From IMG/VR virus record IMGVR_UViG_3300027759_000121, positions 1 to 52,309 of that record: DNA of 52,309 nucleotides; one strand, given 5' to 3'. How positions within the stretch are numbered: the stretch's first letter is position 1; each line of letters begins with the position of its first letter. This document shows positions 13,123 to 42,011 of the stretch, piece after piece. The DNA comes from a virus. Taxonomy: Duplodnaviria; Caudoviricetes. Made by a program: the position numbers and the translations under genes. The notes beneath the pieces are model-generated. The model was not told the origin of the DNA. It saw only the letters and a program-made list of their open reading frames with translations, and searched no databases.

Positions 13123-14256
13123 ATGGAAAACCAAAATAGTGTATGTTATGTTGGTGTAATCGGAGAGGTTAAACCAATAGAAGGGGCGGACAACATAGAA
13201 TTGGTGACTGTTGGTGGGTGGAATGCCATAACCAAAAAGGGTGAATACCAGATTGGTGATAAAATGGTTGTTGCAACCACAGATGCGGTAATACCACAAC
13301 CATTATCTGACTTGATGGAAGTTACCAACTACCTTCGTAAAGGTCAAAGAGTTCGTACAGTAAAACTTCGTGGAGTTTACTCTGAGTGTTTGTTAATACC
13401 ATTCAAATACTTGGTACCAAAATCATTGGAGAACAACGTTAATGAAGGTAATGATATGATGACAATACTTGGGATAACTAAGTATGAACCACCTGTTAAA
13501 ACCGTTCAGTTGAGTGTTGGGGGACGTAAAGTAAAATACCACCAAAACCCTAACTTCAAAGTGTATTACAAGTTCCCTAACCAAAAGAACGTACCTGATA
13601 TGTTTAGTGAGGAAGATGAGGTTGTTATAACTCGTAAGTTACACGGAACTAATGCTCGTTACGGAATAGTTAGAAAGAAAAAACTTTCTTTGTGGGATCG
13701 TGTTAAAATGTTATTTGGCAATCAATGGGCGGCGTTTGAATATGTATATGGTTCTCACAATGTTGAAAAAGGATCTGACTCTCAAGGATTCTATAACACT
13801 GATGTGTGGAAGACTGTTGCAAACACCTATAACATAAGAGGTAAATTGTGGGATCACGTAAAAGATACTTACGAACCATCTGTATTAACTGAAGGTGTTG
13901 TAATCTATGGTGAGATATATGGTGCGGGTATACAAAAAAATTACGAATACGGTTTGACTGATGTTAAATTCGCGGGGTTTGATGTTGAAGTTGATGGTGA
14001 GTACCAACCTTATATAAACGAAACTGTACACTTTGATTGTCTACAATTACCACAGGTTGAAGTATTGTGTCGTGGTAAATGGGATAAGGGAATACAAGAT
14101 AATTTTGTGTTTGATAATTTCATAGAGGGAACTAAAGTACCACACGAAGGTATAGTTGTAAAATCTGTAACAGGTGTTCGCAATAAAGTGAGTAAGGTGA
14201 TAAACCCTGGATATTTAATTTATGGTGAAAAACATAATGTTGGTGACTCCCATTAA
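13123..14256 (+). CDS. ATP-dependent RNA ligase, DRB0094 (Rnl5) type
   Basis: N-terminal OB module (IEGADNIE, KLRGVYSE), motif I KLHGTN, YGEIYG, FDV, EGIVVK. Confidence 0.88.
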   Translation: MENQNSVCYVGVIGEVKPIEGADNIELVTVGGWNAITKKGEYQIGDKMVVATTDAVIPQPLSDLMEVTNYLRKGQRVRTVKLRGVYSECLLIPFKYLVPKSLENNVNEGNDMMTILGITKYEPPVKTVQLSVGGRKVKYHQNPNFKVYYKFPNQKNVPDMFSEEDEVVITRKLHGTNARYGIVRKKKLSLWDRVKMLFGNQWAAFEYVYGSHNVEKGSDSQGFYNTDVWKTVANTYNIRGKLWDHVKDTYEPSVLTEGVVIYGEIYGAGIQKNYEYGLTDVKFAGFDVEVDGEYQPYINETVHFDCLQLPQVEVLCRGKWDKGIQDNFVFDNFIEGTKVPHEGIVVKSVTGVRNKVSKVINPGYLIYGEKHNVGDSH

Positions 14257-18682: not shown

Positions 18683-18785
18683 AAAAATAAAACTATTACT
18701 TAACTTCACTGAGGTTGGAGATTTCTATATGTTGTATGTATTCAAAAAAAGAACCCAACTTTATTGTATTACCCAAACAGTTTAG
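18679..18785 (+). pseudogene. Probable frameshifted gene remnant
   Basis: ATG AAA AAA TAA stops at once, while LLNFTEVGDFYMLYVFKK continues in another frame with no start of its own. Confidence 0.4.
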
Positions 18786-18788
18786 ACA

Positions 18789-19652
18789 ATGAATAATAAA
18801 GAACTAAAGAAAAAAGAATGTTTGTTTGAGATCGCCGATGATTACACCAATGGTATGGACATATATAATCATAATGGATCTTTTTGGTTGATTAACACCA
18901 AAGAATTAAAATGGATGATTGAATTTACTAAAGATAAAACATTGTGGTATAATTACAATGTTTTTAAATCTTTATTTAAAGCAATGTCTTTGGATGTTAT
19001 GAAAAATCAAGAATATATTACCGAATGGTTTGAGTCAAGATTTCTTAAACCTGAGGTGGTTGAAGATACCATTCAAAATGGGGCGAAGTATACCCGATGT
19101 AGCCAACATTCTTATTGTTTATTGGTTGAAGATACCATTCAAAATGGGGCGAAGTATACCCAACCAAATATCCACTCTACCCTCAGTATTGTTGAGAATA
19201 CCATTCAAAATGGGGTGAAACACACCGATCACTCGTGCGATAACATCACCAGAGGTGTTGAAGATACCATTCAAAATGGGGTTAAGCGCACCGTACCTGA
19301 ATCAATTGCCGATTCATTCGCTATTGAAGACACCATTCAAAATGGGGTGAAACACACCATTCAAGGAACAAATTGTGTAAACACAGATGTTGAAGATACC
19401 ATTCAAAATGGAGTGAAACACATCTTTAATAGAACCCGACCAGACAATTTTGACGTTGAAGACACCATTCAAAATGGGGTAAAAGAAACTGAATTGCACA
19501 AAGGAGTTAGACCGTTGGCCGTTAATGACACCATACAAAATGGGGTGAAACACACCCAACGTCGTCTTTTTTCTTTTTGTTGTAGTGTTGAAGACACCAT
19601 TCAAAATGGTAGAAAACAAGATGTGTGGAATGAACACTTAAATAAAAAATAG
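18789..19652 (+). CDS. Protein with about 90-aa N-terminal domain and nine 22-aa units (VEDTIQNGVKHT + 10 variable residues)
   Basis: 287-aa uninterrupted ORF spanning the repeat-spacer array. Confidence 0.75.
   Translation: MNNKELKKKECLFEIADDYTNGMDIYNHNGSFWLINTKELKWMIEFTKDKTLWYNYNVFKSLFKAMSLDVMKNQEYITEWFESRFLKPEVVEDTIQNGAKYTRCSQHSYCLLVEDTIQNGAKYTQPNIHSTLSIVENTIQNGVKHTDHSCDNITRGVEDTIQNGVKRTVPESIADSFAIEDTIQNGVKHTIQGTNCVNTDVEDTIQNGVKHIFNRTRPDNFDVEDTIQNGVKETELHKGVRPLAVNDTIQNGVKHTQRRLFSFCCSVEDTIQNGRKQDVWNEHLNKK
19059..19622. CRISPR. CRISPR-like array: 9 x 36-nt repeats (GTTGAAGATACCATTCAAAATGGGGTGAAACACACC) and 8 x 30-nt unique spacers, inside a CDS, no cas gene in window
   Basis: Repeat starts 19059, 19125, 19191, 19257, 19323, 19389, 19455, 19521, 19587 (period 66); internal palindrome CCATT-CAA-AATGG; last repeat degenerate. 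Confidence 0.7.
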
Positions 19653-21544: not shown

Positions 21545-22159
21545 ATGGATATTTTTAACACAAAAATAGATTTGACCAAAATAACGTGCCATTCTGGAGG
21601 GGCGGTGGGATCAGATACCGTTTGGGACGAGATTGGTGAAGAGTTTGGTGTCAAAACCAATGCTTATTCCTATAGAACAAAGTCGCACGTATCTCAGAAT
21701 AAGGTGGAGATTTCCGACCAAGATTATGAAGAAGGTGTTATTCAAATAACCAAAGCAAACGAAATTTTGGGTAGGTTTGGTATTCATAAATATATGAATC
21801 TATTGGCTAGAAACTGGTCGCAGGTTAAATATTCAAAACAAGTTTTTGCGATTGGTACTATAATCGAAGCTGGCGGGAAATCCGTTAAGGGATATAAAAA
21901 CAAGTCTAAAAATGACGTAGTTGATGGTGGTACAGGATATGCCGTTATGATGGCAATCAATCAAGAGAACGATGTTTATGTTTTCGACCAAATTAAAGAT
22001 AAGTGGTTTAAATGGGATTATGGCTCTCTTAGTTTTGCGGAGTTAAAAGATGTTCCTTCGATTACAGAACAGGATTTTGCAGGTATAGGAACAAGAGAGA
22101 TTCGACCGAACGGAATACAAGCAATTAGAGATGTATATGCAAAAACATTTATTAAATAA
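21545..22159 (+). CDS. SLOG-like nucleotide-binding phage protein
   Basis: HSGGAVGSD, LARN..QV, DGGTGYA, FAGIGTR motifs. Confidence 0.65.
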   Translation: MDIFNTKIDLTKITCHSGGAVGSDTVWDEIGEEFGVKTNAYSYRTKSHVSQNKVEISDQDYEEGVIQITKANEILGRFGIHKYMNLLARNWSQVKYSKQVFAIGTIIEAGGKSVKGYKNKSKNDVVDGGTGYAVMMAINQENDVYVFDQIKDKWFKWDYGSLSFAELKDVPSITEQDFAGIGTREIRPNGIQAIRDVYAKTFIK

Positions 22160-22922: not shown

Positions 22923-23579
22923 ATGAATACATTAGATAAAAAATACACAGATTTACTCCAAGATATATTAGATAATGGAGTCCGCAAGGAGGATCGTACT
23001 GGGACAGGCACACTTTCAGTATTCGGAAGACAGATTCGTCATAATATGAAAGATGGGTTTCCACTCATTACAACCAAAAAGATGGCTTGGAAAACTATGG
23101 TAACCGAATTACTATGGTTTTTAAGAGGTGAAACAAACATTAAATTCTTATTGGATAATGGATGTCATATATGGACGGGTGATGCCTATAAAGTTTATGA
23201 TGAAGACTTTGACCGTGAACACCCAGCATTCAGTGCACCATACCCGAAAAGACTTACTCAAAAAGAATTTGAAGAGAAGATTATGACTGATGACGAATTC
23301 AATAAATGGTATGGAGACCTAGGTCCAATTTATGGACATCAATGGAGAGAATGGAAACACATTAAAGAAGGTGGTTATTTACTTAAAAATGGAAATGAAG
23401 GTAAAGGGACAACCACTAGACATATAGACCAAATCTCAAATCTAATCAACGACCTTAAAACAAACCCAGATTCAAGACGTTTGATGGTTAATGCTTGGAA
23501 TGTAGCTGATTTACCAGTTACTGATTATAGGACTGATGATGAACTTTATCAAGATTATTTAAAGAATGGGATTATGTAG
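22923..23579 (+). CDS. thyA: Thymidylate synthase, N-terminal half of a split gene
   Basis: DRTGTGTLSVFG, FPLITTKK, ELLWFLRG, DLGPIYGHQWR, PDSRRLMVNAWN, then TAG before the catalytic Cys. Confidence 0.92.
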   Translation: MNTLDKKYTDLLQDILDNGVRKEDRTGTGTLSVFGRQIRHNMKDGFPLITTKKMAWKTMVTELLWFLRGETNIKFLLDNGCHIWTGDAYKVYDEDFDREHPAFSAPYPKRLTQKEFEEKIMTDDEFNKWYGDLGPIYGHQWREWKHIKEGGYLLKNGNEGKGTTTRHIDQISNLINDLKTNPDSRRLMVNAWNVADLPVTDYRTDDELYQDYLKNGIM

Positions 23580-34168: not shown

Positions 34169-35638
34169 ATGAAGATATTAATAAGTGAAAAACAATTACA
34201 TGGATTGGTAAACCTCATCAAAGAAGATGGTGATGGTCAAATTAATGTTATGTTTGTTGGGGACAGTTTAAGTTCAGGTGTTGGTTATACTTGGAATTAT
34301 CTTTTAGAAAAAGATCATCCTGAATGGGATGTGACCCATGTTGCAAAAGTAGGGATGAAAACTTCTTGGATGTTGGACAATATGTTACCAAAGTTAAGTG
34401 AAAAAAAATATGATAAAGTATTCATATGGGGTGGAGGAAACGATGCGTTTTCTCAGGACTCATTAGATAATACGGTATCAAATATACAAAATATGGTTGA
34501 TGCGGTTGTTAAACAAGGAGGTCAAGCGTATGTGTTTATTGGGTATGACGCAAAATCGGTAATGTCCGACGATAAATTAAAACCAACAATATATTGTGAT
34601 AAACCATGTATGTTAAAAAGTCGAGATAGAACTATTGAATTACAGGAAAAAATTACAAATAATATTAAAAGTGCCACTATAATACCTGCCGTTGTCGGGG
34701 ATCCTAGTTGGACATCAGATGGTATACATCCAAATGGATCCGCTCATAAGTTATTCAGAGATCAAGTTGAAAAATATATTGTAACACCAACTAATGATAG
34801 TAACGATAATAATGATAACATGGAAACCCAAAGTATGACCCAAAGATTATTTAGTTCTATTAAAAGTATATTATCTAAAAAAGATAACATGGAAAGTAGT
34901 GCAACATCTGAGGACATTAAAACAATCCAACTTTCTTTGAATGTGATTAATAAAAGTAATTTACAAATGACTGGTCAAGTAGACGGTGAAACCTCTCAGG
35001 CAATTGAAGATTATCAAGAGACAAATGATTTAGAACAAACTGGTGAATTAAGTCCTGATACAACAGGAGGTATCATAAGTGATTTTTTATTTAAAATAAC
35101 GGGTAATAGATATACTTTTGGTAAAAGTAATAAAAACTTTAACCCAATGGTAATTGAAAATCCAGGGGTTAAAGTAAATCCATACCCATCGGATATTGAA
35201 TCTAAATTCAAAAACGCCGCTGGTAGTGATTATGATAGTTTTATATCTAATGTTGAATCGATTGGTTTAGATCCAAAAATAGCGATGAGACAATTATATA
35301 CTGAATCCGCATTTAAGCCTGATGTTATGTCCTGTAAGAAAAACTCAACTGCGGGAGCCAAAGGTATTGCTCAGTTTATGCCGGGGACTTGGCCCACTTA
35401 TGGTGGTGGTGGAGATCCTTGTAATATTAGTGATTCATTAAAGGCTTATGTTAAATTTATGAAAGTATTAATAAATAGATTTCCGGGTAGAATAGATCTT
35501 GCAATTGCAGGATACAATAGCGGTCCTAATAAAACGGCATATGCTGACGCATTAAAAAACAAAACACCATTTACCGAACTTAAAGGTGTAATACCTAATG
35601 AGGCTTATAACTACGCATCTTCAATACTTCAACCGTAA
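34169..35638 (+). CDS. SGNH/GDSL esterase + peptidoglycan-binding + SLT transglycosylase fusion
   Basis: FVGDSL, GGGND, DGIHP; IQLSL..TGQVD..AIEDYQ..TGEL; TESAF, AKGIAQFMPGT, AGYNSG. Confidence 0.85.
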   Translation: MKILISEKQLHGLVNLIKEDGDGQINVMFVGDSLSSGVGYTWNYLLEKDHPEWDVTHVAKVGMKTSWMLDNMLPKLSEKKYDKVFIWGGGNDAFSQDSLDNTVSNIQNMVDAVVKQGGQAYVFIGYDAKSVMSDDKLKPTIYCDKPCMLKSRDRTIELQEKITNNIKSATIIPAVVGDPSWTSDGIHPNGSAHKLFRDQVEKYIVTPTNDSNDNNDNMETQSMTQRLFSSIKSILSKKDNMESSATSEDIKTIQLSLNVINKSNLQMTGQVDGETSQAIEDYQETNDLEQTGELSPDTTGGIISDFLFKITGNRYTFGKSNKNFNPMVIENPGVKVNPYPSDIESKFKNAAGSDYDSFISNVESIGLDPKIAMRQLYTESAFKPDVMSCKKNSTAGAKGIAQFMPGTWPTYGGGGDPCNISDSLKAYVKFMKVLINRFPGRIDLAIAGYNSGPNKTAYADALKNKTPFTELKGVIPNEAYNYASSILQP

Positions 35639-40724: not shown

Positions 40725-42011
40725 ATGAAAGACCGTTTTAATCCATTTATAGTTAGAAGACTGAAACAAATTGATGACCTTATTGATGAGGTTTACAATG
40801 AAGTGACACCTTGTGATTATGATGAAGATAAGTTTTATATATACTTCAGGGAGATTACTAATTGGGCGATAGAAAACTTTGTTAATAGTAACGATATTGA
40901 GGATGATAATATTGCAATTGATTTACATCATTTCATAAGAGAAAGATACTTTGATGAGTTTTTAGATTACTTTGATAATGCACAATTAAGTTGTAATGAA
41001 TCTTTAAATGAATCTGAGGATTTAGGTGATTTTAATTATAATAATAACGAAGAAAACAAATTGAATACAGATGTTAAACCATCAGATTTAAAAAAGATTG
41101 AATTTATTGCCGATTATATTGAGGGGGTAAGTGGTGAGCATTTAAATACATCAAATTATAAACCTTGTTTTGTTTCCGTTCAAGCGGGTAAAAATAAATT
41201 TTATATAGTTATAATTGTCACTGATAAAAAATATACTATGGATAAATACGAATCATTTCTTGAGAAAAAATTATGGAAGACATTTAAAGGGATGGATATT
41301 TTTGTTTTTACGATTGATGACAATGATGATAGTGTTCGTAAAAGTTGTGAGGATCATTATAACCATATAAGTAAACTTCCTAATACAATTACTATTGAAT
41401 TTTAAAAAATGAGAGATCTAATTAAAAAAATATTAAAAGAAGAAGACAAAAGACGAAGATACATCAAATCTACGGATAGTCTTAGAAAAGTTATTACATT
41501 ATTTCTTGATGATTTGATTGACGATGGTAATAGAAAAATAGGTAAAAAATCTCGTAACTATGGTAATCTTCGTGAGGATTGGTGTGTTAATGGTAAAGAA
41601 CTTATTACTGCAATATATTATTTTGAAGAAGATAAATTTGAAGGAGGTACTTTATTAGTGTCAAAAAATTTAGTGGAAAAGATAATGAAGACCTTCAACA
41701 CAAGAAAAAACTTTGTGATGAGTATAATTGAGGAATGGTATGAGGATTTAATGGTACCAAAATTTGAACAGATAGTTGGTGAAACAGGTTTTTATTTTGA
41801 TGATGTCGATACTTTTGATAAAGACCACGATTGTATTCCTGAATCTGTTAAACCTGAAAATATTAGTGATGAGGAAATGATTGAGTTTATTGTTATTAAT
41901 ACTCTTTATCGTAGAGATGAGGTCATTAATAAAATTGAAACGGGAGAAAGAGATCTTGAAGATTTTTATTTGGATATTGTTGATACTGCCAAAAGAAGTG
42001 AAAGATACTAG
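40725..42011 (+). CDS. Two acidic hypothetical proteins (40725-41405, 41409-42011)
   Basis: TATTTAT promoter; FIVRRL module; MRDLIKKILKEE leader. Confidence 0.65.

Follow-up and report, generated by a model that had tools for sequence, protein, structure and literature searches.

The array gene and its open frame

An open reading frame (ORF) on the + strand of a 52,309-nt viral stretch (Caudoviricetes; IMG/VR record IMGVR_UViG_3300027759_000121, analysed over its whole length and referred to here as the window) carries, behind a conserved N-terminal domain (N-domain), an in-frame repeat-spacer array that resembles CRISPR arrays, and new pieces of the protein encoded by this phage gene appear to be written by insertions of the CRISPR kind. 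Each unit consists of a VEDTIQNGVKHT-like 36-nt repeat (V-E-D-T-I-Q-N-G-V-K-x-T) and 30 nt encoding 10 variable residues; the start positions of the nine repeats are 19059+66*i (i=0..8), every one of them in the ORF's frame 0, and V.D.I.NGVK is periodic at 22 residues in the protein. The features of the gene are as follows.

18789..19652, + strand: whole ORF, N-domain and in-frame repeat-spacer array, 287 aa
18789..19058, + strand: conserved N-terminal domain, aa 1-90 (alignment, structure model, profile search)
19059..19094, + strand: repeat 1, same sequence as repeat 2, with the rare ending GCGAAGTATACC
19095..19124, + strand: spacer 1 (RCSQHSYCLL), unique, identical repeats on either side
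19125..19160, + strand: repeat 2, same sequence as repeat 1, sharing its rare ending
19161..19190, + strand: spacer 2 (QPNIHSTLSI), unique among 214 proteins
19191..19226, + strand: repeat 3 (VENTIQNGVKHT)
19227..19256, + strand: spacer 3 (DHSCDNITRG), 30/30 identical to a stretch of a bacterial GEVED-domain gene
19257..19292, + strand: repeat 4
19293..19322, + strand: spacer 4 (VPESIADSFA), conserved cassette, 14/214 proteins
19323..19358, + strand: repeat 5
19359..19388, + strand: spacer 5 (IQGTNCVNTD), unique
19389..19424, + strand: repeat 6
19425..19454, + strand: spacer 6 (FNRTRPDNFD), shared cassette, 2/214 proteins, also in P0002 and P0005
19455..19490, + strand: repeat 7
19491..19520, + strand: spacer 7 (ELHKGVRPLA), conserved cassette, 8 proteins exact and 12 within 3 changes
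19521..19556, + strand: repeat 8 (VNDTIQNGVKHT), in which ATA disrupts the small hairpin
19557..19586, + strand: spacer 8 (QRRLFSFCCS), unique, T-rich
19587..19622, + strand: repeat 9, 3' third degenerate
19623..19652, + strand: 30-nt tail with the stop codon TAG at its end

Repeat mapping reproduced the layout given in the original prediction, which had been made from the letters of the window: nine 36-nt repeats, 30-nt spacers, a 66-nt in-frame period and a degenerate last copy. The GTTG start and the CCATT-CAA-AATGG hairpin were likewise found, the hairpin being the predicted fold of the + strand repeat, and all codon changes in the TIQNG core are synonymous (GGG to GGA in copy 6, GGG to GGT in copy 9 and ATT to ATA in copy 8, the last of which breaks the hairpin). 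Spacers 3 and 7 have 50% GC, as had been noted, in a window of 30.9% GC. Not all eight spacers are unique, however: five occur nowhere else among the 214 family proteins compared, and spacers 4, 6 and 7 recur in 14, 2 and 8 of them. Because it has identical repeats on both sides, spacer 1 is the youngest-looking unit of the window array. The minus-strand ORFs in the array region are by-products of the repeat.

When 30-nt spacers lying between two repeats were defined by DNA pattern alone, none of the 76 distinct spacers contained a stop in frame 0, as against 33, 38, 37, 22 and 24 of 76 when the remaining five frames were read. Of 134 distinct intervals from one repeat to the next, 133 were multiples of 3. 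Host CRISPR arrays, taken for comparison, have spacers of 29-31 nt with a stop in the same frame in 17/32. The stop-free condition of the eight window spacers, remarked on in the original prediction, thus extends across the family, while the probability of about 2% that it attached to chance is too high, the expectation being ~0.49^8 to 0.53^8 (0.3-0.6%). Arrays of the family hold 3 to >25 units, and within 94 family genes 565 of ~800 intervals measure 22 aa. Old cassettes such as ELHKGVRP.. vary mostly at synonymous sites and, since frame-0 stops are also absent from the spacers, the array protein is under selection. Judging from these sequence patterns, the array is translated.

Relation of the repeat to Flavobacterium CRISPR repeats

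A 21-nt pattern of the repeat, scanned against one genome per prokaryotic species, returned 20 stretches, of which 17 were single matches and three were multi-copy. All three multi-copy stretches are Flavobacterium arrays, from F. columnare, F. covae and Flavobacterium sp. J27. Their repeat measures 36 nt and their spacers 29-31 nt, and they adjoin Cas13b (NF038190, 782 bits, full-length protein). In the same register, the family consensus is identical to this cas13b-linked repeat (L134) at 24/36 positions and the window consensus at 25/36, in agreement with the Cas13b likeness suggested in the original prediction; for 24/36 the binomial tail is 2.7e-7, and 0/200,000 shuffles reached 24 (maximum 21). 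The identical bases include the GTTG start and ACC.TTCAAAAT. Other type VI-B repeats of Flavobacteriaceae match at 21/36 (two repeats) and 22/36 (one). A 46-nt repeat, which we take to be probably of the type II-C kind, has the GTTG...C.TTCAAAAT 5' motif in common with the phage repeat and matches 17 of its first 36 bases; a loosened 5' pattern gave at least 7 matches in 24/401 sampled Flavobacterium genomes, the arrays of two of which were inspected.

The likeness lies in the DNA and goes beyond the peptide, because the VEDTIQNG codons have, at their third positions, the bases of the CRISPR repeat fixed in defiance of the codon usage of the gene itself: repeat versus N-domain frequencies are 87% versus 32% for ACC, 96% versus 58% for GTT, 90% versus 54% for ATT, 99% versus 72% for AAT and 64% versus 13% for GGG. 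From these comparisons of sequence, the phage repeat is CRISPR-related, to type VI-B repeats and to the 5' part of type II-C repeats of Flavobacterium. A candidate Rfam match to CRISPR-DR54 at 18962-18995 was discarded, being below threshold and outside the array. As a separate observation, the host VI-B arrays L137, L142 and L267 contain some 'long' repeats, in which an insert of ~52 nt interrupts the loop of the 36-nt repeat and gives spacings of 146-184 nt.

Captured DNA and conserved cassettes among the spacers

The core of spacer 3 matches four metagenome contigs, at 30/30 nt in three (L270-L272) and 29/30 in the fourth (L273). The match stops at both spacer borders, and the contig flanks are unrelated, non-repeat sequence. 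The source is internal to an ORF that is at least 1720 aa long and encodes GEVED domains, the phage + strand being antisense to the bacterial gene. An ORF beside it matches a type IX secretion sorting tail weakly, with a score under the cut-off; together, the domains and the sorting-tail match next door point to a Bacteroidota surface-protein gene. Flavobacterium homologues of the source gene are 69-74% identical in the region around spacer 3, and two of them align through the 30 nt ungapped (73-74% over the surrounding ~125 nt), so the copying went from bacterium to phage. Considering 4^30, one specific 30-mer would not be expected to occur by chance in any existing collection. On this sequence comparison, spacer 3 is captured bacterial DNA of exact spacer length. 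At this single protospacer, TAAA lies 1 nt from the end that faces the N-domain, an offset different from the one that the consulted portion of PMC8092290 reports for F. columnare.

Base composition is consistent with foreign DNA. Mean GC is 44.6% for 35 distinct young spacers and 38.3% +/- 0.8% for 152 singletons, and stop-free 30-mers sampled from phage loci have 32.4%; this gradient from young spacers through singletons to phage DNA fits foreign DNA slowly taking on phage composition. The youngest spacers of L088, L215, L027, L099 and L022 reach up to 63% GC in phages of 26-35% GC. The amino-acid composition of singletons correlates with that of random stop-free translation (r=0.87).

Three other origins or relations of the spacers were examined and dropped. 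As candidates for self-derived spacers, 289 good local matches were collected from the phage DNA analysed, of which 256 had repeat-like flanks and the other 33 lay within family genes; hidden relations among 424 spacers through a shifted frame or inversion came to 9-17-nt chance matches only; and rRNA as the origin of GC-rich spacers yielded no match >15 nt when the 424 spacers were compared with 18 kb of Flavobacterium rRNA loci.

Proposed array growth, and recombination

CRISPR adaptation copies the neighbouring repeat while inserting new DNA. Among the 565 22-aa units of the 94 distinct genes, 38 lie between identical 36-nt repeats, and 21 of these 38 are at index 0 or 1. Runs of identical repeats beginning at index 0 occur in L088 (7), L215 (5), L062 (4), and L027 and L090 (3 each); they carry a lineage-specific repeat variant, and the spacers between them are unique and mutually unrelated. 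In the window array R1 = R2, and the arrays of L098 and L085 share the same 12 units, to which L098 adds a single N-proximal one. Runs in which the repeats are identical and the spacers unique fit CRISPR-type addition, because duplication or recombination would copy the spacer along with the repeat. The young end of the phage arrays follows directly after either the Trp conserved in the N-domain or a segment, FESRFL.., that resembles a degenerate repeat.

Recombination at repeats also reshuffles units between phages, since identical cassettes are found in genes whose N-domain DNA is just 63-72% identical; spacer 4, for instance, has the same 30 nt in genes with N-domain DNA just 70% identical. 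Strict polarity of the differences among close relatives was looked for and not found.

We favour, with moderate confidence, the explanation that a CRISPR-derived array was exapted as coding sequence and is still growing as foreign DNA is inserted in the CRISPR manner, with a filter that keeps the frame open. The border-exact 30/30 protospacer and the N-proximal runs of identical repeats lend weight to the original suggestion of a captured array used as protein and diversified by spacer insertion. In the proposed mechanism, 66-nt units, each made up of a duplicate of the adjacent repeat and 30 nt of foreign origin, would be inserted by an integrase of the CRISPR-adaptation type, mainly but not exclusively beside the N-domain. 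The most plausible agent would be host Cas1-Cas2 acting in trans on phage DNA during infection, a role modelled on the host's own VI-B arrays as the consulted portion of PMC8092290 presents them. The frame would be kept on insertion because 66 nt equals 22 codons; about half of random inserts would carry a stop and be purged, and open units alone would persist. Older units would drift to phage base composition; they are shuffled between phages by recombination at repeats, and some are conserved as protein cassettes. The array may also serve as a sink for the host adaptation machinery.

A captured VI-B-type array fused in frame, with no integrase active now, would be a relic whose diversity arises from unequal crossing-over, cassette exchange between co-infecting phages or paralogues and rare illegitimate capture of foreign DNA. 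It accommodates the identical 30-nt cassettes in genes of divergent N-domain DNA, the conservation of shared cassettes at synonymous sites to the same degree as the repeats (0.07-0.25 vs 0.17-0.29), the spread of unit gains and losses along the entire array, the frequency of tandem paralogues, and the lack of Cas1 and Cas13b in the window and five large relatives. Recombination, however, cannot make up to 7 identical repeats around unrelated unique spacers, and neither the exact 30-nt foreign insert ending at the repeat borders nor the GC gradient (44.6% in young spacers, 38.3% in singletons, 31% in the phage) is explained by it. We regard a relic of this kind as unlikely.

Several findings weigh against continued CRISPR-type growth as we propose it. 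With regard to position, genes with identical N-domain DNA differ at internal as well as N-proximal array positions, and the unmatched cassettes over 500 close pairs number 1154 at the N-end, 1614 internally and 1529 at the C-end. As for orientation, when the repeat is read GTTGT... the leader of host arrays adjoins its base 36 (L134 layout, and the consulted portion of PMC8092290), whereas the young end of the phage array abuts base 1, which is the opposite orientation to host arrays. The 46-nt repeat type occurs in 9 of the arrays listed from the loosened-pattern scan, and an integrase that works as a molecular ruler of 46 nt would not be expected to duplicate a repeat of 36 nt. Of the eight spacers in the window, three are protein cassettes that are conserved and that recombination exchanges, and cassettes of 8, 9, 11 and 12 aa also occur in the family.

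The protospacer evidence comes to one spacer of the one searched in metagenome contigs. None of the five spacers scanned in viral contigs matched anything beyond its own array, and no full-spacer match was found for the window array in 401 Flavobacterium genomes, for the L088 array in 361 Flavobacterium genomes, for three arrays in INPHARED (blastn, chance-level matches) or in 1.7 Mb of flanking phage DNA. The repeats on either side of spacer 3 differ at 5/36 positions and so are not the identical pair expected fresh from insertion. Young spacers are moreover GC-richer than sampled Flavobacterium DNA (35.2%, stop-free 30-mers).

cas genes and the RNA level

Searches for Cas1 (PF01867) and Cas13b (NF038190) found neither in the window, Cas2 and Cas9 not having been searched for, and neither in five large relatives, three of them >=96% complete; Cas13b itself is present in just 5/401 sampled genomes of Flavobacteriaceae, the likely host family. 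These results, too, count against CRISPR-type growth, and in view of them and of the oppositely oriented growing end, host Cas1-Cas2, the agent named in the original prediction, is no more than a candidate inserter. The RNA fold of the repeat speaks against a plain CRISPR array: the minus-strand phage repeat RNA is predicted at -6.8 kcal/mol (z -0.7) with no paired termini, compared with -10.9 kcal/mol (z -2.5) for the host repeat RNA.

The same data bear on an RNA product, in which an orphan VI-B array or repeat mimic would load or jam host Cas13b through its minus-strand transcript and the plus-strand frame would be secondary. Over the 25 nt at its 3' end, the minus-strand repeat agrees with the host Cas13b repeat at 21/25 positions. 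For other types, phages are known to carry repeat mimics by which Cas proteins are blocked (PMC10651486, in the portion consulted), and contigs from RNA libraries contain array pieces of relatives, which prove neither transcription nor strand. The minus-strand fold is nonetheless unlike that of the host repeat, which speaks against the dual crRNA or decoy use originally proposed; no Rfam CRISPR-DR family matches the repeat, promoter-like sites are at chance level (7 found versus 6.6 expected), and Cas13b is rare in the likely host family. Spacer 3 on the minus strand, moreover, is the sense of the bacterial mRNA and would not pair with it, and selection on the protein is shown by the avoidance of frame-0 stops and by the N-domain and old cassettes being conserved at the amino-acid level. 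An RNA product as the primary function is accordingly improbable.

Gene family and predicted protein structure

A word-seeded protein search with the whole protein found 2449 proteins at E<=1e-3 among 7445 candidates, and when the N-domain by itself was used in an exhaustive profile search, 455 cluster representatives scored E<=1e-3, of which 274 scored <=1e-10. With few exceptions among the best 150 of the 455 representatives, the N-domain is N-terminal or close to that end. At least 2 strict repeats are present in 86 of 146 N-domain representatives, these being the listed representatives minus those already in the whole-protein search set, and a 23-nt repeat pattern matches at least 119 viral contigs. 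Lake metagenome and metatranscriptome contigs from public runs contain relatives with different cassettes.

The array gene family was absent from isolated phages (INPHARED), where tblastn gave just 23-25% repeat-driven matches to tape-measure proteins of Bacillus phages. Searches of Pfam, PHROGs, the ESM Atlas and the PDB, by sequence and by fold, returned no informative family for the array protein; specifically, there was no Pfam family for the window protein and no PDB sequence match for the N-domain, and in BFVD the N-domain matched solely uncharacterised proteins from uncultured phages.

The N-domain alignment (A1) has 15 invariant columns, and the AlphaFold2 (AF2) model of the domain (pLDDT 80-95) shows a helix, four strands and two helices. 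The residues that close the domain, FESRFLKPEV, have the look of a repeat 0 that has degenerated. The repeats are drawn by AF2 as strands (pLDDT 55-75), and the best fold matches are beta-solenoids, weakly so (no PDB fold match at E<0.16). From the model we would guess that the protein is a repeat scaffold of predicted strands with tolerated or selected variable loops.

These structural features bring in the simplest alternative, an ordinary tandem-repeat protein such as a beta-solenoid with variable loops, whose CRISPR likeness would be coincidental and whose units would have diverged by point mutation. Identity to the cas-linked repeat of the likely host genus is far above chance, the synonymous sites of the repeats are fixed while the spacers are unrelated, and neither the 30/30 foreign insert nor the runs of identical repeats with unique spacers fit such a protein; we hold it to be very improbable, for all that the 22-residue period, the predicted strands, the weak beta-solenoid matches, the conservation of some cassettes and the variation in cassette length agree with it, and that CRISPR finders are described as mistaking in-gene tandem repeats for arrays (PMC5294841, in the portion consulted). 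The original prediction held that variable segments which align between orthologues or vary in length, in a protein with no known CRISPR repeat and no protospacer, would mark an ordinary tandem-repeat protein. In part this is what was found, as three of the eight variable segments align with orthologues and cassettes range over 8-12 aa, but the repeat is CRISPR-like and a protospacer exists.

The Pfam family Dodecin gave weak matches in 3/5 homologues, with no passing stretch, two of them just above the whole-protein cut-off. The matches in P0059, P0089 and P0055 (18-30 bits) fall on the repeat motif and may hint that the repeat 12-mer forms a helix instead of the strands drawn by AlphaFold.

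Tandem paralogues of the array gene are common. The phage record G803, which contains L088, has 11 N-domain copies, several of them in tandem in one open frame (e.g. C1:18461-19534, 40897-41973 and 155010-156712), and four other large relatives have one copy each. Repeat cores occur within 500 nt past the stop in 12 of 77 complete genes, where ten represent the next paralogue and two (L122 and L022) are broken genes. In L122 a stop lies within the N-domain and six repeats continue in another frame; in L022 it lies within a conserved cassette and is followed by a degenerate repeat remnant and one recognisable repeat.

Comparison with known systems

Diversity-generating retroelements (DGR) likewise produce a phage protein region of extreme localised variability. 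In these elements the adenine positions of a fixed-length region are rewritten by reverse transcriptase from a template copy, unlike the phage array, which adds whole unrelated 22-codon units and in which no template repeat was seen, a reverse transcriptase not having been searched for. Off-target, ectopic or non-canonical Cas1-Cas2 integration reportedly takes place in host arrays, close to them, or at sites hit by chance in the genome. Repeat-like targets away from a leader would explain the internal unique units and the leaderless growth of the phage array, which differs in sitting in a conserved phage coding gene family.

The closest likeness is to Flavobacterium VI-B arrays, those of F. 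columnare gaining spacers in trans through type II-C Cas1-Cas2 (Hoikkala et al. 2021, mBio, PMC8092290, in the portion consulted). The phage array has the same geometry of 36-nt repeat and 30-nt spacer, with 24-25/36 repeat bases in common, and as far as that portion of the source goes it would also resemble them in drawing spacers from chromosomal DNA in either orientation and in growing without adaptation genes of its own. Unlike them, it is carried by a phage inside an ORF that is kept open, has no cas13b and no recognisable leader, has its apparent growing end on the other side of the repeat and has lost the Cas13b repeat fold; its spacer lengths are limited to multiples of 3, and old spacers are kept as peptide cassettes. 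As a CRISPR array it fails on three defining points, namely cas genes, crRNA context and repeat fold.

Virus-borne mini-arrays, solitary repeat units and Racr (PMC10651486, PMC11656645, each in part) similarly place host-like CRISPR repeats in phages without cas genes. In those portions, Racr and the solitary units are short non-coding RNA genes that mimic the repeat structure, whereas the phage array is translated and the structure is lost; it is not a repeat mimic of the Racr type. The viral solitary repeat units reported in the consulted portion of PMC10651486 cover all CRISPR types except type VI. With 'false CRISPRs' (Zhang and Ye 2017, PMC5294841, in part) the array shares a repeat-spacer appearance in a coding gene with no cas genes nearby, but false CRISPRs as described there lack spacer diversity and repeats of a real type, and the phage array is diverse, has one protospacer and has kin among cas-linked repeats.

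Neither a translated array nor this gene family was found described in the literature searched, a search that left supplements (repeat and leader alignments, viral repeat-unit lists) outside its range. If CRISPR spacer insertion does build the gene, it would be the first case in which the process builds coding sequence and not guide RNA, in a virus rather than a cell, and would represent a new natural route to protein diversity and possibly a new phage counter-measure against the adaptation step. The spacers of phage arrays would then reveal hosts, the mirror image of the usual matching of spacers to phages, and hundreds of natural repeat and 'leader' variants would make the target needs of the II-C/VI-B integrase testable. 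A more specific version, which we put forward tentatively, is that freshwater Bacteroidota phages use borrowed CRISPR adaptation to write 30-mers of host DNA as random 10-residue peptides, which selection keeps, shuffles and sometimes fixes. Were that so, the array would be a generator of protein diversity or an integrase sink that spares the phage host immunisation, and also a record of the hosts infected by the phage lineage.

Genomic neighbourhood

The window comes from an uncultivated virus and is a fragment, with a CheckV completeness of 18%, and its nearest named relatives are the Flavobacterium phages vB_FspM_immuto, with 74% identity across a neighbouring gene. The array gene sits in an accessory and nucleotide-metabolism region of a large phage, other features of the window being as follows.

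13123-14253: RNA ligase (phrog_968, 191 bits)
21545-22156: DprA-like protein
22923-23576: thymidylate synthase
34169-35635: virion protein with endolysin domain

No conserved neighbour likely to act on the array or its protein (cas genes, enzymes for ribosomally synthesised and post-translationally modified peptides (RiPP), proteases) was seen near family genes, the neighbours being only syntenic phage genes, endonuclease-like ORFs and tandem paralogues. ORFs with putative GIY-YIG-like starts recur near the family gene (e.g. in L024 and L014), one cluster of them in 12 lineages and another in 2, and homing endonucleases in this position could promote the local recombination seen. A ~202-aa protein is located upstream of family genes in 20 lineages. 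In the window, a short frame at 18690-18785 (..LLNFTEVGDFYMLYVFKK..) resembles its N-terminus, and just the start of that protein seems to be left, as if truncated right before the array gene.

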